64,000 bases of DNA from a virus. Lineage: Duplodnaviria; Caudoviricetes. The stretch is taken from positions 128,001 to 192,000 of IMG/VR virus record IMGVR_UViG_3300021399_000099. One strand, written 5' to 3'. This document shows, piece after piece, positions 3,748-59,577 of this stretch (its first letter is position 1; each line of letters begins with the position of its first letter). The translations under genes were made by a program, and so were the position numbers. Under the pieces are notes generated by a model that was not told the origin of the DNA, ran no database searches, and was given only the letters and a program-made list of their open reading frames with translations.

Positions 3748-3802
3748 GTTATATAGTGCTTTAATATAAATATATAACATTTAGTAAAAAAATCAAGGCA
3801 TA

Positions 3803-5657: not shown

Positions 5658-5706
5658 AATTAAATCTTTATTGTTACAGCATTAACTGTACAAATATCGT
5701 GCCAAA

Positions 5707-7304: not shown

Positions 7305-7924
7305 ATTTTTGAAATTGAATGTTGTATTTTTAATGATATATACAAATACCGTGCCAAACTTACTTCCTTATTTTAACGGGTCATCACATTTAACCCACTC
7401 CCTTCTTTCTTTTTCGTACATTTTCCACCCCTTCCCATCCTCATAGTAATAGGAAAGAACGTTCCAGTCGGTATTATCTGTACCTGGAATATACTCCTTA
7501 ATGTATGCACTGATTCTCCAGAGCTTGATGATTCCTTTATCGTACATATCCAGGAAAATCTTCTTGCACGTATCATCAGCGAAACTGGCGTGTAGCGTTC
7601 CCCAATCTCCATAACTTGATAGAGATAAGCCATCCAACCCCTTTGCATTATAGGAACAATCACTGGCCATTTCCGGTTTATATCCAAGTTTTTCAATGTA
7701 CCTATGGTCTTCACCGGAACATTTATAGTCTATTGAATGCCCCTTCTCAAACGCAACATTAAACGGGTAAGGTAAATTATTCTCCATTTTCATCCTCTTT
7801 ATTGTCCTCTTCTTTGTAATACCACTCCAGATAGACAGAGTAGTTCCAGTCAATTTTGTCATAGTTCTCCTCTATCCATTTCAGCAGAGCTTTCTTGGAT
7901 GCAAACTCCTGGCCATACAGTTGT

Positions 7925-11401: not shown

Positions 11402-12110
11402 ATTGTTTTTTTTTATGTTTCATCCAATATATTACAAAAACCGTGCCAAACTATTTCGAATCCACAAAATCAAGGAACTCAATATTCTTAAACCTGCAGT
11501 AGAATACAAACCATTCCTTGTTTTCGATAGTTTCTCTGTTGTTGTTCAAGTAATATATGTTATCGTAGCTTTTCCAAGAATTATAAAACATGCGACCAAA
11601 CTTATCGATTTCGTCACCTTTTCTCGTAAGCACCGCCTGCCCATTATTCAACAGGTCATAAAGCCGGTCATAATCCTTGCTGACCTTGTAATCAAAGCAC
11701 ACTGTCGTAACGTCATTTTTATCCGCAGATTTAATGTTTTTCCTTGCAACATCGTTTATTAAGATGCCAAGCCCAAGGCCCAAAACAAAAATTAAGAAAA
11801 TCACAAAAATGGTAGAGACATAACTAACATTTAACATATTCATAAAAAAAATTAATAATTATTACCTTTATAATAAAAATGATATAAAAACCAACGAACT
11901 TAATCGTTGGTTACTGCCACTAATTCTCCTCAAATAATTCCAGCAAATACATAAAAACGTCAGCTATTGCGTGATACCTGGTACAACGGTAAGTATCTAC
12001 GTTGTAATTGGCATAGCCGAGTTTCCTGTATTCATTAAACTTCTTTTCGAGTTCTTCCTTTGTGATGGTCAATTTATCGCCATTAACCTCGTAACTCTCT
12101 ATATCAAAAG

Positions 12111-17597: not shown

Positions 17598-18038
17598 ATC
17601 TACTTTTTTCTTTTAAAATCCTCTTTTAGTTCTTCCAGCTTTCGAAGTTCCTTAATGTGGTCCGGCTTGAGAAACTCTTCCATAACTTCAGATTTGCAAA
17701 TCAATGTCGAAATCAAATCCTCACTCATTGCAAGAAGCTCAAACATTTCATCACCGAAGTCATCCCAATCAACTTCGTGCGGATAGTTCTCCGACTCGGC
17801 AATCTTGCTCTCAAAATATTTCAGCCGCAAAATCAAAAGACGGCTTAGGATTACCGCACGATAGGAAATGCTGTCCGTTTCGTGGTATAGTTTCCAGAGT
17901 TCGTCTTTTGACTTTTCTTGTTCATTGCTGCTGCAGCTTACGTGGGCCACCTTTAAAATCCTAGGAAATAATTTTCCCCATTTCCACCAACTCATAATTT
18001 TAACTTTTCTTATTGCATATGCAAATATTGTGCCAAAC

Positions 18039-24261: not shown

Positions 24262-26378
24262 TTTTCATCTAATATATTTTCAAGTTTATACCGTGCCATA
24301 ATATTAAGAATAAAAATTAGTTATGAACTCATAAACCTTCTCTATGTGGTTCCAATCAAAATCCATCCAACAATGATAAGTTTCACTCCAAACCTGCACA
24401 TCCTTTGAATCTGAGCGTATAATTCTCTTCTCAAGGTGCAATTCGTCTTTGAATGGATGCCGATACCAGCAAAGTGCCTTAGCTTTGTTCCATACCCTTT
24501 TATTTTTTTTAGATTTTGCCATATTTTAATTATTTTATTCGGCATCAAATGCGAATCCGTTTTCTTTAAGGTACTTTACGTATTCTTCATAAGAAGAAAA
24601 CCTTTCAGGATAAAAATTCCAACTATTCATATTTCCAATAAGTTATGATATATGCCTTTGTGGTGTCAGCATTGTTTATGGTAATCGTGCTGTCAATCCT
24701 ATATTCAACAACATCACTAACTACTGTTGATACCGGCTCATTCTTTTCTTTTGCATGAGAGTCATCTATGGCATTTTTCAATGGATAAAGATTAAGGATG
24801 CCCAGTACAAGAAGAGCTAAACCGTGGCCAAAATTTTCCATCACAAACTGTGCAATAGCCGCAATACAGCAAAGCACGATTGTTAAAACCGCAAAAATAA
24901 TCCTAACTGTAATCATAATTTTTATTCTTTGGTGATTGTTAATTTAATCTTGCCCCCGTATTATTTTTCGTAAGGCCATGCAAAGCCGTCCGGAGATGTG
25001 GGTATCAGCATATAGTGAGTGGGCATATTAGGAAGATAGCCCTCTACCGCCTCACCATATTCATACTTGCACCAAGTTTTACGCGTTCCGTCCGGCTGTA
25101 TCTGGTACGTTTCATAATCATCCCCCTCTTCGAGACAAGTGGCATAACAATCCTGGTCATTAACCCATTTGGCCGAGAAAAACCCCGTATCGGAAAGAAA
25201 ACCAATCCTTGTTCCGGCCGGGTTAAAGTCTTCATTAACCCACTCTTTATTGTAACCAATTACCTCCTGTCCATAAGGCAGCGGATGGTCTTCATCAACT
25301 TTAATCCAAGTACCAGGCATATTATCCTGTAAAGAATGAATAATGGAGACGACTTTAGTATATCCACTTAATTCTGCCACCCATTCTTTATAATTGGCTG
25401 CATAATAAAGTTTATTCATTAATGATATAAGCTCGTCTTTCAACTTTCCTATCTCGGCAATCAATTTATCTGCATCGATGTATTTGTTCATAATTTTTAA
25501 TATTTGTTAAGGAACATTAATCTTGTTATCTTTTAACATACTTAGAAAAGATTTCATCACGCATTTTCCCGGTAATGAAAACACTATCCGTAATAGGCAC
25601 CGCTTCGTTACCGTCTTGTGAGATTATCAGTCCCATAAAAGTATCCGAGGTCATAACGGCCCTGGAAACGGTATTTATAACGGTGTCTTTATTTATTACA
25701 AACACGCTGGACCCATGCTCAACAAAACACCTGGAAATAGTTTTACGGGTCTGTTTTGCTACTTGTGTCTCAATGCTGTCAGTCCTCACCCTGCAGTCGA
25801 TAAAATAGGTCGTTGAATCATCCGGAACATATACATCACGGAAAAAATCTATGCCATATGAATGGATATCCAGTGACGTTCTGCTACAAGAGCCGACAAT
25901 CACCATAAACGAGAGGGCGATAAGACTAAGCTTCGCCATCTTTAATGAAAGCAATTTCTTCTTCATCATACCAATATTCAAGTTTAAGCGGTTTAAAACT
26001 AAAAAGCATCCTCTCATACGAATACTTGTCACATATCTTATTTACCATTTTTTTCTTCTCTCGATACTCTCCCCATCTCTGCTTCAGCTCGTTGTCATCT
26101 TTAATCCCATCGAGCCAGTGAATAATGTTATCGTAGGCCCCATCACTGATTTTTGTCTGGAAGTGAAAAACCTGAGTGTTCCTCACAAGGAAAAAATAAA
26201 TCGCAATGCCCAATGCGGTAAATAAAAAAATGTTAGCTACGTTCATAATACTTAATTTTTAATGTTTCACGTTCTATATTGCAAGAATCGTGCCAAACTG
26301 ATTAAAATATACAAAAAAGATAGAAAAAAACAAAACCCCAGGTTTCCCCGGGGTTTCATAGAATAGAAGGTGTTCGCA

Positions 26379-34050: not shown

Positions 34051-34434
34051 ATGTAAAAAAATTAAAGTTTAAAATTATATTATGGCATATGCAATAATCG
34101 TGCCAAACTTACTCACCCAGCCAATTTTTTAGGTCAGTAATGTCGTCTATACAGTCAAGTCTATCGTTAGTGTATGCCCAGATAAGCCTGATGGTATTTT
34201 TATCTTCATCAGCTGTATAATCTATAATGGATAATGGTTCCTGTTTAAACCTCATTATATGTACCAATGGGGTTTTCGCCCGCTTTTCACACAAGCCAAC
34301 CAGGAAACCGAATTCTTCCAAAAGTATTTCGACTTCTTCTCTACACATAACGTAATCCTTTTTACATAATATAATACAAAAACTGTGCCAAAAAACAAAA
34401 ATGACAGCAAAAAGTGAAAAATTTGCTGTCATTT

Positions 34435-34507
34435 GTGCCAGATACAGGATTCGAACCCGCATATCAACGTTTTAGGGACGCCCGCTTTACCAATCAGCTA
34501 ATCTGGC
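34435..34507 (-). tRNA. putative amber suppressor tRNA (anticodon CUA)
   Basis: full cloverleaf; anticodon arm GGCGT-CCCTAAA-ACGTT; C33 also seen in this phage's Gly(UCC) and Arg(CCU) tRNAs. Confidence 0.7.
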
Positions 34508-34829: not shown

Positions 34830-35286
34830 AGTTTTCCACGGAGACTGTTCTGTATTCTCCTCCCCACGCGTCTTTTCTTGTTTCATAATTCTTAAACTCA
34901 TAACCGTATTCCTGAAGTATGCAATTGATTTGACTCAGATATTGACAGAGAGGGTGCTTTCCATTCAATTCTTCACATGTTGTATAGCGTTGCCCATGTA
35001 TTCCGTTAGGATAAGCCCAGTATCTGCTTTTGTCATAAATGAGGAGCTTGGCGTTCTTTTCGGTGACGTCAAAACTCTTTCCCCTGAGCAAATTGTAGGC
35101 AGCATACCTGATTCTAAGTCTTTCCTTAATGTCTTTGACTGCATCTACTGCCTTCCAAGCGGGCATTGTCCTCTCACCGGTAAAATACACGGTTTTTCTC
35201 TGAGGTTTGATTGATTTCTGTTCTTTTTCAAGTTCGGCAATATCTTTACGCATAGCCGAGATAGCGTTTTTAAGATTTGTTTCCAT
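34801..35286 (-). CDS. hypothetical protein
   Basis: 161 aa; LR..YAAYNLLRG; start codon lies in a predicted hairpin. Confidence 0.7.
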   Translation of the reverse strand: METNLKNAISAMRKDIAELEKEQKSIKPQRKTVYFTGERTMPAWKAVDAVKDIKERLRIRYAAYNLLRGKSFDVTEKNAKLLIYDKSRYWAYPNGIHGQRYTTCEELNGKHPLCQYLSQINCILQEYGYEFKNYETRKDAWGGEYRTVSVENYEEVVCVGE

Positions 35287-35586
35287 AATATTCGTTGTTT
35301 TTAAAATTATTTAATTAGTTTATTTTGCTTCAGAAACATTAGTTTATTTTGCTAAACTGCTTAAAAACAACGATTTATGGAGGCGCGTTAATTAAAACCT
35401 AGTATGTCATAGCTTTACGCATAGCCGAGATAGCGTTTTTAAGATTTTCTTCCATAATATTTGTTGTTTTTAAAATTATTTAATTAGTTTATTTTGCTTC
35501 AGAAACATTAGTTTATTTTGCTAAACTGCTTAAAAACAACGATTTATGGAGGCGCGTTAATTAAAACCTAGTATGTCATAGCTTTA
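35244..35586 (-). repeat. 169-bp tandem duplication containing amber-interrupted leader uORF
   Basis: two copies offset by 169 nt with two substitutions. Confidence 0.9.
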
Positions 35587-38790: not shown

Positions 38791-38883
38791 TTCTTAAAGT
38801 TTTAAATGTTATACTTGTTATATCTAACATACTACAAAAATCGTGCCAAAACAAAAAAACTCCGCCAAAAATGACGGAGTTTG

Positions 38884-45405: not shown

Positions 45406-45471
45406 ATGTTCGTATTTATAATATAAATATAACGAACACGCGAAACCATGTAAATATTTTTCAAAAAAAAC

Positions 45472-45952: not shown

Positions 45953-46066
45953 CTTCGAGACCATATTTTTACCCGGCTGGTTAGACCGGTCCGACTTGTC
46001 AATGAACTTGCTTTATTAATATACAAAAACTGTGCCAAAAACACAAATTTTTTGCAAAAAATTTTG

Positions 46067-47587: not shown

Positions 47588-47662
47588 CTCTTTTTATTTT
47601 TGCTATATATAAATATATACGAACTTGGAAAAAAAATCAAGGTTTTAATTTTTTTTTACCTG

Positions 47663-49788: not shown

Positions 49789-50545
49789 TACCCCCGGTGG
49801 GATTCGAACCCACACTACATAGACCCTAAATCTATTGCCATCTTCCAGTTGGGCTACGGAGGCATTTTGGTGCTCAATTCTTATAAGGCGTCTGCAGAGC
49901 ACCACCCACGCCAGTATTCTACAAAAATCGTGCCAAACTTTGTAGCCCCGGTCAGATTCGAACTGACACTTTACAGATTTTGAGACTGTTGCCATCTTCC
50001 AGTTGGGCTACGGGGCCATAAAAAGCACTCCTACTTACATCCCTTAGTCCCCGTTTTTGGTATGTCGGGACATAGTAAAGTCTGTGCTTAGTACCCTTGG
50101 TGAGATTCGAACTCACACTGTATAGGTCCTTAACCTATTGCCGGCTTCCAGTTGGGCTACAAGGGCATATATAAGTTTTTGTATCATACCTTACTATTGA
50201 GGTTGAATATTTAATATTCATTTATACTTAGGATAACTTTAAACCTTCTTTTGGTACCTCCGGTGGGATTCGAACCCACACTTGACAGGTCTTTAAGTCC
50301 TTTGCCGCTTCCAGTTGGGCTACGGAGGCATTTAACAGGCTCATCAGCGTATCCGTTACTTTCAGGCTTTCAGCTAAATAGCGTTCTGCGACGTCTGTCA
50401 GGGCTTTGTTTAGCCTAGCACCCTCCTCCGATTTAAAGAATCCCGAACCAACGTGGATTCTACCTGTTTGTACCCCCAGTGGGATTCGAACCCACACATA
50501 AATACGGTCTGAACGTAAAGCCTCTACCAATTGGGCTACAAGGGC
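49789..50545 (-). tRNA. five short-variable-arm tRNA-Leu: UAG 49789-49863, CAA 49943-50017, AAG 50092-50166, UAA 50252-50329, CAG 50471-50545
   Basis: shared TAGCCCAACTGGAAG D-arm; anticodons read directly. Confidence 0.8.
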
Positions 50546-54820: not shown

Positions 54821-54948
54821 ATAAAGCGACAACCCGCGAATTCTATCTTGCACAACGGTATCATAGTTAAGGCTGGCCGAAGAGTTACCCCTCGATTTAA
54901 AGTTCCCATGAACACACCTTAACACCTCACTATATTTCAAATAACTTG

Positions 54949-55020
54949 TACCCGGGAGACGACTCGAACGTCCAATCTTCGCTTTAGGGGAGCGCTGCAT
55001 TTCCATTATGCTACCCAGGC
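54949..55020 (-). tRNA. tRNA-Arg(CCU)
   Basis: loop CCCCTAA (C33). Confidence 0.75.
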
Positions 55021-55034
55021 ATATAATCTTATAT

Positions 55035-55120
55035 TACAAATACCGTGCCAAACTTTTCAAACTACTAAAAAAAATTTCATTTGTTTCTGGACCACTATAT
55101 TACAAATACCGTGCCAAACT
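55035..55120 (-). promoter_or_regulatory. tandem sigma54-type promoters heading the tRNA array
   Basis: TTTGGCACGGTATTTGTA twice (55035-55053, 55101-55119). Confidence 0.75.
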
Positions 55121-55135
55121 TGAGTTGTGGGTATT

Positions 55136-55246
55136 AAAAAACCTCCGAATCTTGGGTTTTTCCTTGCCGGAGCCTTAGATTGGAGGTGAAGTTAAGATGT
55201 ATGTTGTGGTTAGAAACCTATGTGCGATTTTTTTCTAAGTTCGCAT
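55136..55246 (-). promoter_or_regulatory. amber-containing leader overlapping an intrinsic terminator (attenuator candidate)
   Basis: ATG CGA ACT TAG ... CCT CCA ATC TAA; hairpin CCTCCAATCT/AGATTCGGAGG followed by T-run. Confidence 0.6.
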
Positions 55247-55498
55247 CACTCCTACTTCTCCCCTTGCTCCGGGTGCCTCATACCATTCATTACCTTTAAG
55301 GTAACTTCCACAGAGTACGGCAGCGGCCAGGTCAATTCTGGTGAAATCGACTGGGCGTGAAAACTGCTTCGTATTATGTAACATCTGTGTCATTGAATGT
55401 ATGATTTTTTTTGTTTTTGATTTTTGTTCGCTATATAAATAGTACAAAAAATAAAAAAGAAAAGCAAGAGAAAAATATTTTTTTTTTAAATTTTTTTC

Positions 55499-55993
55499 TT
55501 AAAACTTCTTTTTTCTGCCCTTTTCCTTCTTCTGGGCGGCTCTTTCTGCCTTTTCCTGGGCTTTCTTCTCAGCCATCTGTGCGAGTGTATATTGTGCAAG
55601 GAGTGCCGAATCAACTGCAGCGTTCTTGAACTTCTCGTACATACCTACCGGGACCGTAATGCTGGGGGCACCGATGATAATCTTCTCCTTTTCGCTGTCA
55701 TAGGAAATCTGGTCCATTGCAAGACGCAGCCACATATATTTGTTATCCAAACCGTTCTCGTCAGGTCCGTCCGGGAGAAGGTCAAAAGCTTCCCCATTAA
55801 CAAGCACAAGAATGAGGTCCTCACGACCGGAAAGATATTCGGCATATTCGTTCGCCCTGACAATCTTTACGACTTCCTTAAGATTCACAACGTCAAGTGT
55901 TTCAAAATCAACGAATTGTGAAAGACCAAGCTCGTGTGCAATCTCATCAACAAGTTTTACGATACTTTCATCTGCCTTAAAAAACTTTGCCAT
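55499..55993 (-). CDS. hypothetical protein
   Basis: 164 aa with basic C-terminal tail. Confidence 0.7.
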   Translation of the reverse strand: MAKFFKADESIVKLVDEIAHELGLSQFVDFETLDVVNLKEVVKIVRANEYAEYLSGREDLILVLVNGEAFDLLPDGPDENGLDNKYMWLRLAMDQISYDSEKEKIIIGAPSITVPVGMYEKFKNAAVDSALLAQYTLAQMAEKKAQEKAERAAQKKEKGRKKKF

Positions 55994-56086
55994 ATTCAGT
56001 TAAATGTTTAAATTATTTATTATTGTATTTTTTTACCTTATATTGTATTGTAAAGGAAATATACAAACTATTTTTTAAAAAACCAA

Positions 56087-57076
56087 ATGGCTGAAAGAAC
56101 AATCACCGAAAAAGAAAGACTGAGAAGGGAACGCCTTGCTGAGAGACGCAGGGTGGGGTTTCTTGCGTATCTTGAGCGGAGAAAGAAGGAAAAGGAAGAG
56201 AGGAAGGAGCTTGAAAGGTTGGAAAAGGAAAGAAAGAAGTTGGAAAGGGAGGCGGAAAAAAGGGAAAGGAAGAAAAAACCCGTCGTTAAAAAAAGGAAAG
56301 TCGGTAGGCCAAAGAAGCGTGGCCCCAAGAAAAAGAGGAAATACATATCCAGGAAGCCGAAAATCGACAAGAGAACCTTAAGGATATACGACTATAAGGT
56401 GGTGTCGTGCCATAACGGGAAACAAAACGGCTATGTCGGTGTATATGTAAGACCGGAAGAAGCGTACGAAGCCATTGAAAGGCTTATGGAGGGGCAAGAG
56501 GACATAATTTTCCCGGCAAGGATTCAAATCACGGACACAATCCACGATTCAAGGAACGAATACCTTATACTTGAAAGGAACAGGTACGGCGATAAGGAGG
56601 CCCCACTTTTAAGGAACTCATATGGGAAACTTGTAAAGCAGGAAACCAACTCGGACACCTGGATTATTATGGATAAGATAAGGTACGATGTGGAGGAGAC
56701 GTTCTGGGTATATGGTTACGACCCGTCAAGGGGAAGAAAGACGTTCGAATGGATATACAATAATATAATAACGGGTAACATCGAAAGTTCCTATGACATA
56801 AAAAGGGTGATATTGTACAAGAACAAAATCATCATAAAGGACGATGTCGGGGGGCTCGATATCGTATTCTGCAAGACACCAAGTGAGGGAATACGCTTCT
56901 ATAACCTATTGGGTGAATGGGTGTTAAAGAACAAGATGAAGAAACATATCTTCTTGCTCGGGGACTATAGCAAAATTGGAGATAAGCGGAGGGCCCTGGA
57001 AAAGGAACTTGTTGAAAAGACCGGCTGGACGATACGGAAAATACAGATGAGCACAAGTAAAAAATGCAGATTATAG
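56087..57076 (+). CDS. hypothetical protein with highly basic N-terminus
   Basis: 329 aa; KRKVGRPKKRGP AT-hook-like motif. Confidence 0.75.
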   Translation: MAERTITEKERLRRERLAERRRVGFLAYLERRKKEKEERKELERLEKERKKLEREAEKRERKKKPVVKKRKVGRPKKRGPKKKRKYISRKPKIDKRTLRIYDYKVVSCHNGKQNGYVGVYVRPEEAYEAIERLMEGQEDIIFPARIQITDTIHDSRNEYLILERNRYGDKEAPLLRNSYGKLVKQETNSDTWIIMDKIRYDVEETFWVYGYDPSRGRKTFEWIYNNIITGNIESSYDIKRVILYKNKIIIKDDVGGLDIVFCKTPSEGIRFYNLLGEWVLKNKMKKHIFLLGDYSKIGDKRRALEKELVEKTGWTIRKIQMSTSKKCRL

Positions 57077-57142
57077 TTTTTAGTGTTTGCTGGACTATTT
57101 ATGATAGATAATAAAATAATAAAAACAGATAAACAACAAACT

Positions 57143-57961
57143 ATGGCAAATCTAACTTATTTCAAAAAATTCAGTACCAAGAGTGATTATGACACTTATA
57201 TCGGGGGAGACCCTGTATTACCTAATGTAAGTATTGTTGCAAATGAAGACGTGTATTTCAAAGACGGGGAAGGTCCGGTACCACCACATGATTATTCACA
57301 AGATTATTTGACATTTGTAATGCTTGAGGATGATGCCACAGTAAGTACAAGCTATGATGACATCTTTTTCTCGAGCGACAACGGGGAAACGTGGCTCAAT
57401 GGAGAAATTACTGGTTTAAGTGCAGGGGACAAAGTTTTAATTAAAGCCAATAGACCCGCGTTTGTGGGTAGCAATAAAACCGCCTTCAGCGTCGACAAAA
57501 ATTTCAATGTTGAAGGAAATATTATGTCATTAACTTATGGGGATAATTTCAAAAACCAAACCACACTTCCTCCTTATGACGAGCAGCATGAGTATGGCGA
57601 ATTTTGTGGAATTTTCTTTTATTGTAGTAGTTTAATTTCCGCTGAAAATCTTGTATTACCCGCCACAACATTGACAGAGAAATGTTATAGTGACATGTTC
57701 ATTGAATGTACATCCTTAACAACAGCACCTGAACTTCCTGCCGCAACATTGGCAGAGAATTGTTATAATAATATGTTCCAGCGTTGTATCTCCTTGAATT
57801 ACATCAAATGCCTTGCAACAAATATATCAGCAGATAATTGTACATATAATTGGGTAAATGGCGTTGCTGCAACCGGTACCTTCGTAAAAGACGCTTCCAT
57901 GACCGATTGGACATCTGGTAGTGACGGTATTCCTAATGGTTGGACAGTACAAGACGCTTAA
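57143..57961 (+). CDS. BspA-like LRR protein
   Basis: shared N-terminal MANLTYFKKF module and LRR repeats. Confidence 0.85.
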   Translation: MANLTYFKKFSTKSDYDTYIGGDPVLPNVSIVANEDVYFKDGEGPVPPHDYSQDYLTFVMLEDDATVSTSYDDIFFSSDNGETWLNGEITGLSAGDKVLIKANRPAFVGSNKTAFSVDKNFNVEGNIMSLTYGDNFKNQTTLPPYDEQHEYGEFCGIFFYCSSLISAENLVLPATTLTEKCYSDMFIECTSLTTAPELPAATLAENCYNNMFQRCISLNYIKCLATNISADNCTYNWVNGVAATGTFVKDASMTDWTSGSDGIPNGWTVQDA

Positions 57962-57996: not shown

Positions 57997-59577
57997 ATGG
58001 CAGAATTAACTTATTTCAGAAAATTCAAAACAAAGAATGAATATGACACTTACATTGGTGATACTCCTGTATTACCTAATGTAAGTATTGTTTCTGACAG
58101 TGATGTATATTTCACAGACAGAGATACACCAGAACCGCCATCCCCATATTTGTCAATGCCTTTAACGATTGAAGTTACTGCCGGGACAGGAACATTAGCG
58201 TTTAATAGGGTAGAATTAAAATACAAATTAAATGACGGAGAATGGATATTGGACGATAACCCGGTCATTTCTGTGTCAAGTGGCGATATTATACAAGTTA
58301 AACAGGATTACCAAGCCCCTAGCGGCCCTGGAAGTGGCAGTGGTTCAGGAAGCGGTAGCGGCTCTGGCAGTGGTTCAGGAAGCGGTGACGATGGGCCACA
58401 GTTGTTTACCGCCGACGGCTCTTTGTTGTATGTTGTTTATGGTAATATAATGAGCATATATCAAGAAGATGGCTTTGAAAGTTTAACCTCATTTGCCGGA
58501 GGAGAAGAAAATGTGTTTTCCGAATTGTTTCAACTTTGCACCGGTTTAACTTCAGCTGAAAATCTTATATTACCTGCTACTACATTGACAAGTAATTGTT
58601 ATCAATATATGTTCCTTGGTTGTACAGCATTAACCGCAGCCCCTGAACTTCCTGCTACAACATTGGCAGGTTATTGTTATGGTCGTATGTTCTCTGGTTG
58701 TACCTCATTGACCTCAGCACCGGCACTTCATGCAACAACATTGGCAGAGTATTGTTATACTGGTATGTTCCTTGGTTGTACATCCTTAACCACAGCACCT
58801 GAACTTCCTGCTACAACATTGGCAAGTAATTGTTATAGTAGTATGTTTTATGGTTGTAGGTCATTAACAACAGCGCCAGCACTTCCCGCTACCACATTGG
58901 CAAGTGGTTGTTATGATGGTATGTTCTGTTATTGTACATCATTAACAACAGCCCCTGAGTTACCTGCAACAAAATTGGCAAATAGTTGTTATTTTAATAT
59001 ATTCAATGGTTGTACATCTTTAACCACACCGCCTGAATTACCAGCAACAACATTGGCAGATAGTTGTTATTATGGTATGTTCGCCGAATGTGCATCCTTA
59101 ACAACAGCGCCTTCATTACCTGCTACTACATTGACAGAGAGATGTTATGAACGTATGTTCCAAGGTTGTACATTATTGACAACAGCACCTAAATTACCAG
59201 CAACGACATTGGCAAGTTATTGTTATCAAGGTATGTTCCAAGGATGTACGTCATTAACCACAGCTCCTGAACTACCTGCTACTACATTAGCACAGTATTG
59301 TTATAGGAGTATGTTCCAAGGTTGTACAAGTTTAACAACAGCACCTGAATTACCTGCAACCACATTGACAAAATATTGTTACAATGGTATGTTCTCTGGT
59401 TGTACGTCATTAAATTACATTAAATGCCTTGCAACGGATAAATCAGCAATTTATTGTACGACTTCTTGGGTAAATGGTGTTGCTTCAACTGGTACATTTG
59501 TTAAAAATCCAAATATGTCATCTTGGACAACCGGCATTAGTGGTATCCCTTCAGGGTGGACCGTACAAAACGCTTAA
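57997..59577 (+). CDS. BspA-like LRR protein (about 11 repeats, GS linker)
   Basis: 72-nt tandem repeats; (GS)n linker at about 58330-58386. Confidence 0.88.
   Translation: MAELTYFRKFKTKNEYDTYIGDTPVLPNVSIVSDSDVYFTDRDTPEPPSPYLSMPLTIEVTAGTGTLAFNRVELKYKLNDGEWILDDNPVISVSSGDIIQVKQDYQAPSGPGSGSGSGSGSGSGSGSGSGDDGPQLFTADGSLLYVVYGNIMSIYQEDGFESLTSFAGGEENVFSELFQLCTGLTSAENLILPATTLTSNCYQYMFLGCTALTAAPELPATTLAGYCYGRMFSGCTSLTSAPALHATTLAEYCYTGMFLGCTSLTTAPELPATTLASNCYSSMFYGCRSLTTAPALPATTLASGCYDGMFCYCTSLTTAPELPATKLANSCYFNIFNGCTSLTTPPELPATTLADSCYYGMFAECASLTTAPSLPATTLTERCYERMFQGCTLLTTAPKLPATTLASYCYQGMFQGCTSLTTAPELPATTLAQYCYRSMFQGCTSLTTAPELPATTLTKYCYNGMFSGCTSLNYIKCLATDKSAIYCTTSWVNGVASTGTFVKNPNMSSWTTGISGIPSGWTVQNA

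Follow-up and report, generated by a model that had tools for sequence, protein, structure and literature searches.

At the head of a large transfer RNA (tRNA) array in a member of a clade of giant rumen phages we found one conserved, folded RNA of about 275–300 nucleotides (nt) that contains a 52-codon open reading frame (ORF) and its own terminator. The DNA analysed (the window) is a stretch of 64,000 nt, bases 128001–192000 of the 216,910-bp IMG/VR virus record IMGVR_UViG_3300021399_000099 (estimated to be 61% complete), and 47 tRNA genes and a transfer-messenger RNA (tmRNA) gene lie on its minus strand between 34435 and 55020. The leader element lies just upstream of the first of these genes, tRNA-Arg(CCT) (55020–54948), which is the first tRNA in most of the relatives too; all positions given below are those of the window and refer to the minus strand unless stated otherwise. 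Covariation showed the RNA to be structured, and comparison of the relatives showed that selection keeps the ORF free of stop codons while its amino acids drift. We tentatively favour the reading that the module is a ribosome- or translation-sensing leader, an attenuator of the tRNA array. The original prediction, in which a four-codon amber leader is read through by a suppressor tRNA so that transcription continues into the array, was refuted as a mechanism for the family as a whole.

Structure and covariation of the leader RNA

Homologues of the 52-codon ORF were found in 18 protein clusters (73–96% identity) and their DNA was compared; 12 copies were found independently through the protein search. 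A search with a 30-mer from the most conserved block, which made no use of ORF calls, added 23 metagenome loci, and the ORF of the element was present in 32 related metagenome and virus loci. Pair counts were made on 27 sequences and stop-codon counts on 27 copies, while the register of the frame after the stop was scored on 26, openness of the ORF on 32 and downstream layout on 35 loci. Known phages gave no match in a DNA search of a phage collection with 54900–57100, viral contigs scanned for two exact motifs and with a profile of the neighbouring 164-amino-acid (aa) protein yielded a single relative, and a 28-mer of the invariant block described below had no match in 185,579 prokaryote species genomes. 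Searching the window against Rfam 15 at gathering thresholds matched only tRNAs and a tmRNA, with nothing credible at E values up to 10 in 54900–55600; the element is a structured RNA family absent from Rfam.

The structure was derived with RNAalifold and by hand inspection, and the 5′ domain (55278–55404) was recovered by RNAalifold on its own. In this domain helix P1 (55404–55395 with 55288–55278) encloses P2, P2a, P3, P4 and P5 and pairs the 10-nt stretch that ends 2 nt before the ATG with codons 36–40 of the ORF; its 5′ strand, TCATACATTC, is the last 10 nt of an A-rich 5′ untranslated leader placed at 55394–55432 by the alignments. P2 (55389–55384/55314–55309) lies inside P1, with the start codon between the two. 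The clearest covariation was seen in P4 (55354–55344/55338–55327, six pairs changed on both sides), P5 (55305–55300/55294–55289, three such pairs), P3 (55367–55363/55324–55320, two such pairs), P10 and the upper stem of the terminator, and the divergent loci L027, L031/L034 and L037 rebuild the P4 and P5 hairpins from different sequences. For the 79 proposed pairs taken together, 92.7% of cells were paired compared with 31–42% when the partners were slid, and 17 pairs had changed on both sides compared with 8.6 ± 1.7 in shuffles, a value of 17 being reached in none of 500. Conservation is at the nucleotide level and reaches 13 nt upstream of the ATG, these 13 nt being either invariant or changed only to G-U pairs.

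Downstream of this domain the strand CCGGAGC (55266–55272) forms the 5′ side of P10, pairing with GCTCCGG (55173–55167) in the terminator loop; 94.7% of cells were paired, with A-U replaced by G-C on both sides in three sequences. With the terminator folded P10 is a pseudoknot, and with the terminator unfolded it becomes a nested closing helix. The purine-rich strand GGGG-A-GAAG-TAGGA (55250–55263), which holds the AGGAG pointed out in the original prediction, provides the 5′ side of P6, in which GAAGTAGGA pairs with TCTTA-A-CTTC (55197–55188; 98% paired). In an extension of this helix (P6ext) GGGG can pair with CCTC (55186–55183), competing with the terminator, and the three positions concerned are paired in 24–27 of the 27 copies. 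Because the 3′ strand is invariant neither P6 nor P6ext shows two-sided covariation, and the duplex with this strand comes to −11 to −16 kcal/mol in 27/27 copies, even where the 5′ strand is different. P7 (55220–55249) is a hairpin whose A-rich loop contains the stop codon of the ORF, TAG at 55237–55235, and no other segment of the element varies so much: its helix is 74% paired, with register slips, the lengths of its indels are not multiples of three, and the stop codon within it may be TAG, TAA or TGA. Conservation peaks after the stop in a 45-nt block, CACATAGG...CACCTCCAA (55180–55224), which contains the P8 hairpin (55218–55208), the single-stranded ACAACATACA, the 3′ strand of P6 and the start of the terminator. 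Among the 12 copies from the protein search this block has only one variable site; the later 30-mer search fixed 30 of its bases by construction.

The intrinsic terminator, P9 (55136–55186), is itself conserved. Its 5′ arm, CCTCCAATCT (CCT CCA ATC T, 55186–55177), pairs with AGATT-C-GGAGG (55152–55142) in a stem of 10 bp that has a single bulged C, closes a 24-nt loop and is directly followed by T6 at 55141–55136; a simple terminator scan missed this hairpin because the loop exceeds 8 nt. Folding of 55260–55120 gave −31 kcal/mol (z = −3.25), better than all 200 shuffles. P9 was paired in 97% of cells, with C-G replaced by U-A on both sides of the upper stem in L013, L018 and L042. A terminator of the form GGAGG-T5+ was present in 32 of the 35 loci and, as L020 and L021 end before it, only L026 (Ga0256405_10166107) has lost it. 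L026 looks like a natural deletion variant: it lacks the promoter-like box upstream of the leader and also the terminator arm, loop and T-run, so that CCTCCAAT is joined straight to the spacer before the downstream sigma54-type motif described below. On the plus strand, antisense to the invariant block (55182–55200), there is a perfect GGAGG followed after 9 nt by an ATG and a short ORF (MYVVVRNLC...), which is probably a by-product of the CCTCC in the terminator arm.

The 52-codon open reading frame and its stop codon

The ORF (MTQMLHN...GEVGVMRT, 55235–55393) comprises 52 codons followed by TAG and was open in 32/32 copies, with lengths of 51–59 codons. When polymorphic stops were counted over codons 2–44, frame 0 had none in all 27 copies compared with 6 in frame 1 and 11 in frame 2, and for the 16 copies found by nucleotide match only the counts were 0, 5 and 10. 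This is despite frame 0 having the most single-step routes to a stop codon (22), and shuffling of columns gave a probability of 0.0004 for the open frame. Both of the indels within codons 1–44 are of 3 nt (lost in L017, gained in L027). The AUG is preceded by an A-rich leader, as at other genes of this phage, and the ORF is probably translated.

The peptide itself is under much weaker constraint. Entropy summed by codon position was 19.3, 27.6 and 28.9, with as much variation at the second position as at the third, in unpaired columns too, and pN/pS (the ratio of nonsynonymous to synonymous polymorphism) was 0.58 in the frame of the ORF compared with 0.88 and 0.69 in the others. AlphaFold predicted no confident protein fold (predicted local distance difference test score, pLDDT, 53) and no Pfam family was found for the ORF. 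It therefore appears that translation matters and that the peptide product matters much less. Codon usage was considered for what the ORF might sample. All 20 amino acids occur in 21/23 distinct ORFs compared with 2–3% of 52-residue windows of phage proteins, and 41 of the 52 codons are distinct compared with 29.7 ± 3.2 in real genes. The amino acid content is weak evidence for the attenuator reading, and codon sampling by design was rejected: the random expectation for distinct codons is 35 ± 2.3 and the other two frames, with 37 and 38, match the ORF frame, so that the diversity comes from unbiased codon use and not from design.

The same alignments decide the fate of the amber leader. Reading the sequence directly, AGGAG lies at 55253–55249 and ATG CGA ACT TAG at 55246–55235, and the latter does form the end of a longer ORF starting at 55393, as had been noted. 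It is also true of this phage that, if TAG were suppressed, the frame would continue through 55234–55175 for 19 codons (KKIAHRFLTTTYILTSPPI) to a TAA at 55177–55175 that ends the 5′ arm of the terminator, immediately after Pro-Pro-Ile codons that lie within that arm; a run of 19 stop-free codons after a stop is expected in about 40% of cases, (61/64)^19. A tRNA with anticodon CUA is encoded within the minus-strand array (34435–34507), TAG and an in-register frame occur together in 15 of about 27 relatives, and a ribosome sitting on CCUCC would be the physically most direct way for translation to block the hairpin. What had been taken for an independent four-codon ORF is, however, the last four codons of the conserved 52-codon ORF, its ATG being codon 50, and it has no plausible ribosome-binding site: a mere 2 nt separate the AGGAG from the ATG, the motif belongs to the P6 strand, and the promoter-proximal gene starts of this phage are A-rich, lack AGGAG and show no use of Shine–Dalgarno sequences. 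The stop itself is interchangeable, being TAG in 21, TAA in five and TGA in one of the relatives. The frame after it is in register in 17/26 copies and out of register in 9/26; in these nine it closes after 3–8 codons, long before the hairpin is reached. Between the stop and the invariant block lie 4, 5, 6, 7, 10, 12 or 13 nt. Lack of conservation of the frame after TAG is what the original prediction had itself named as grounds for rejecting it. In five lineages frameshifts have altered the C-terminal residues, including the supposed initiating Met, and in place of M-x-x-stop the relatives show MRDIDE-TAG, MREVDE-TAA, M-TGA or no Met at all.

Nor did the rest of the genome bear out a circuit in which reading of UAG by tRNA(CUA) feeds back on the array. 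No clear in-frame TAG was found in conserved genes of the 216,910-bp record using ORF maps and PHROG scans of TAG-joined ORFs; TAG terminates 40/232 long ORFs, ORF maps made with code 11 and with TAG read as Gln differ little, and reading TAG as sense barely alters the coding density. ATG-x-x-TAG is not enriched (80 occurrences in the genome compared with 93 ± 10 in Markov simulations) and this site was the only one, genome-wide, at which a continuation of 8–30 codons ends in CCTCC, so that no further leaders of the proposed kind exist there. The site at 35.5 kb that had been offered as a second example of the same logic is a duplication scar: its M-T-Y-TAG lies within a 169-nt tandem duplication (35240–35408 and 35409–35577, two copies, 98% identical) of the 5′ end of the gene at 35286–34801, which creates a truncated ORF ending MTY-TAG, and the fold of its RNA (−8.6 kcal/mol, z = +0.89) is no better than that of shuffles. 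The TAG at 55237–55235 is the ordinary stop of the 52-codon ORF, situated in a variable hairpin loop. With respect to the tRNA, one relative (L034:2069–2149, minus strand) has a tRNA with anticodon UUA (ochre-type suppressor) in its array where this window has CUA, and the type of suppressor thus differs between close relatives. A search for tRNA(CUA) in relative G001, the record of which is a fragment, did not find it, and no identity could be read from an alignment of tRNA(CUA) with the phage's other tRNAs. The lesson is that an in-frame amber codon beside a suppressor tRNA is no evidence for a read-through circuit.

Possible control of the tRNA array

The usual view of tRNA arrays in giant phages is that they keep translation going late in infection or make up for tRNAs that host defences have destroyed. 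In 27 related loci the element is followed by tRNA genes of the same orientation, with none on the opposite strand, and the distance from the T-run to the first tRNA is 52–53 nt in seven loci. Two promoter-like classes flank the leader. Ahead of it the box TATTTATAT (55433–55441) is conserved in nearly all relatives, and the same box, often preceded by a T-run, occurs 20–35 nt before several gene starts in the genome; we infer that it represents a second promoter-like class of this phage, which may be that of the host housekeeping sigma factor. Further copies were seen at 47607–47615, 45421–45429 and 3764–3772 and at other sites in G000.

Beyond the terminator there is a sigma54-type motif, GTTTGGCACGGTATTTGTAATATA (55096–55118), the TGGCAC core of which starts 19 nt after the T-run, and an identical second copy (55030–55052) lies just before the first tRNA. 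The spacing of 19 nt is kept in 30 of the 35 loci (18 nt in L013). The motif beside the leader matches the sigma54 consensus as TGGCACG-N4-TTGY (−24 element TGGCAC, −12 element TTGC, fixed spacing), and the window contains TGGCACR-N4-TTGY as an exact match 13 times, each time on the minus (coding) strand, compared with 0.08 expected; together with about 45 looser copies before gene starts across the genome this suggests that the motif is a main promoter class of the phage. The exact sites are at 1493–1507, 5690–5704, 7342–7356, 11434–11448, 18021–18035, 26281–26295, 34091–34105, 34376–34390, 38834–38848, 46023–46037, 49921–49935, 55036–55050 and 55102–55116. Motifs of this type lie 30–45 nt before an ATG or just before tRNAs, and are also found on the plus strand in the 31–58 kb region of G000; the −12 element has GC in one block of the genome and mostly GT elsewhere (often TTGT). 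An ORF at G000:5058–7742 matched the Pfam AAA+ model Sigma54_activat (E = 3.7e-11), a model that lacks specificity for sigma54 activators, since it hit each of the 14 control genomes, four of them archaeal. In the 216,910-bp record no gene for sigma54 was found.

A conserved terminator preceded by an ORF and followed by tRNA genes on the same strand makes an attenuator-like leader a reasonable interpretation, and it is this part of the original prediction that stands, shorn of amber read-through. In such a scheme the box at 55441–55433 would drive an RNA of about 275–300 nt ending at the terminator (55186–55136). As the start codon is flanked by P1 and P2, ribosomes can probably load only during transcription. 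A ribosome keeping pace as far as the last 12 codons would cover the CCGGAGC and GGGG-GAAG-UAGGA strands; the pyrimidine strand would then be free, the simple terminator hairpin would form and transcription would stop. If translation stalled or failed, for example when tRNAs were scarce or damaged, these strands would instead pair first with the CCUC arm and the loop, and with the arm already paired termination would be hindered and the polymerase would run on into the tRNA genes without any need of the sigma54-type promoter. The competing upstream strands are codons 41–49 of the ORF, and in pre-terminator folds of every homologue tested the G-run (55263–55260) paired with CCUC and CCGGAGC with GCUCCGG. 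Attenuation of this kind would also explain why the ORF has been kept open without conservation of its peptide.

Several observations weigh against attenuation. The antiterminator overlaps only 4–5 nt of the 5′ arm of the terminator, and the competing pairing shows no two-sided covariation. In the window the fold with the terminator enforced is the more stable (−35.6 kcal/mol compared with −31.8 kcal/mol for the pre-terminator fold), so that the antiterminator may be too weak to matter. The ORF has no run or cluster of regulatory codons, and the diversity of its codons is equalled in the other two frames. Transcription of the array can start at the sigma54-type promoter 19 nt past the terminator, with no read-through needed. 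In relatives other than the seven with close spacing 0.1–1.9 kb separate the module from the first tRNA, often with small ORFs between them, and in many relatives such ORFs take up 0.2–1.9 kb and each have their own sigma54-type promoter. Finally, the attenuator model leaves unexplained both the elaborate 5′ domain and the single-stranded ACAACAUACA, which is invariant.

The main rival is that the module is a stand-alone dual-function gene, a structured small RNA (sRNA) together with a small, fast-evolving protein, whose terminator insulates the array and whose position reflects synteny. We regard this as possible but doubtful. A promoter-like box and a terminator of its own come with the module, the array has a sigma54-type promoter to itself, the 164-aa gene upstream is also syntenic, and a conserved structure and a selected ORF do occur in the same transcript, as would be the case in a dual-function sRNA. 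The 45-nt invariant block with its single-stranded ACAACAUACA suggests a sequence-specific partner. The pairing of the terminator loop with the upstream strand is a feasible pseudoknot, such as might be found in a stable folded RNA, and the complete RNA is more stable with the terminator enforced than in its pre-terminator fold. Set against this, the amino acid sequence is only weakly constrained, with codon position 2 as variable as position 3, and there is neither a confident fold nor a Pfam family for the protein; no complement of more than 12 nt was found in the phage genome and the 10–12-mers complementary to the invariant block were at chance level. The stand-alone gene also leaves unexplained why the G-run is complementary to the 5′ arm of the terminator in every lineage.

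A purely non-coding structured RNA, in which the open frame would be an untranslated by-product of conserved sequence, is improbable. The strong covariation, the start codon wedged between P1 and P2, the random-like triplet diversity of all three frames, the lack of codon-position periodicity and the AlphaFold score would all fit, but they do not account for there being no polymorphic stops in frame 0 compared with 15–17 in the other two frames given equal opportunity, for the two indels in codons 1–44 both being of 3 nt, or for the A-rich leader before the AUG, as at genes of this phage. The amber circuit is very improbable, given in addition to the evidence above that the array has its own sigma54-type promoter 19 nt past the T-run, though it could possibly persist as a lineage-specific add-on.

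If the module is indeed an attenuator, it would be the first known case of attenuation acting on tRNA genes instead of amino acid or synthetase genes, and would tie translation stress to the supply of phage tRNAs in a way that can be tested directly. A literature search turned up no leader or attenuator described for the tRNA arrays of phages. One can go further and suppose a general sensor of translation or tRNA status, with a leader ORF of 52 codons, specifying all 20 amino acids, threaded through a folded RNA. A stall at any codon, caused for example by host anticodon nucleases or tRNA depletion, would let the upstream strands trap the terminator and give a sigma54-independent burst of tRNA transcription, and in lineages that combine TAG with an in-register frame tRNA(CUA) would act in feed-forward by driving ribosomes onto the terminator arm; this extension we consider unlikely. 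At the least, the element is an uncatalogued structured RNA family of about 80 base pairs with a pseudoknotted terminator and an embedded ORF under selection, an unusual and clear case of overlapping constraint at the levels of RNA and translation.

Some features of the neighbourhood were also recorded. The upstream 164-aa gene, syntenic among the relatives, has no Pfam family, and in one relative an IS605-type TnpB/OrfB gene (L008:462–1646, minus strand) lies about 1.3 kb upstream of the element. On the plus strand of the window adjacent ORFs of 292 and 526 aa (57083–57961 and 57997–59577) are in different frames where relatives such as L011 have a single gene of about 896 aa, and the pair may represent a frameshift or a split gene. 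An apparent 624-aa fusion at 56087–57961 was discounted, there being two genes in relatives.

Comparison with known leaders and phage RNAs

The closest parallels are the trpL, hisL and pheL attenuators (e.g. PMC3082878), which likewise have a short ORF whose peptide sequence matters little, an intrinsic terminator downstream, an overlap between the 3′ end of the ORF and a strand able to pair with the 5′ arm of the terminator, and a stop codon shortly before the partner of that arm. Unlike them, the present ORF has 52 codons without a run of any single codon and lies inside a covarying five-helix domain, the overlap is of 4–5 nt, tRNAs rather than biosynthetic enzymes are encoded downstream, and a separate promoter follows the terminator. 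For a module that combines a leader, an sRNA and a small-ORF gene there is a precedent in rnTrpL/peTrpL of Sinorhizobium meliloti, where the RNA released by the attenuator is a trans-acting sRNA and the leader peptide plays a part as well (PMC7968998, PMC7298713). The element has no sequence or structural kinship with rnTrpL, is phage-borne and stands beside tRNA genes, and no target for it was found in the phage genome.

T-box leaders are tRNA-sensing riboswitches that bind tRNA directly. Their layout, a structured 5′ leader of about 200–300 nt with a terminator and a competing helix, is also that of the present element, which would likewise make read-through depend on tRNA status; here Rfam gave no match to a T-box even at E = 10, neither a specifier loop nor a T-box sequence was recognised, and sensing would go via a translated ORF instead of direct binding of tRNA.

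As regards the phage itself, the Lak megaphages (PMC6784885) and crAss-like phages (PMC9523058), stop-recoded and with suppressor tRNAs, resemble it in being large gut or rumen phages of the Prevotella type with a big array and a tRNA(CUA). Here, by contrast, there is no clear in-frame TAG in the 216,910-bp record and TAG swaps with TAA and TGA in relatives. GOLLD and ROOL are large structured phage RNAs found beside tRNA genes. The present RNA is far smaller (about 275 nt), has no match in Rfam and contains an ORF under selection, and like them it is a conserved structured RNA adjoining a phage tRNA cluster.

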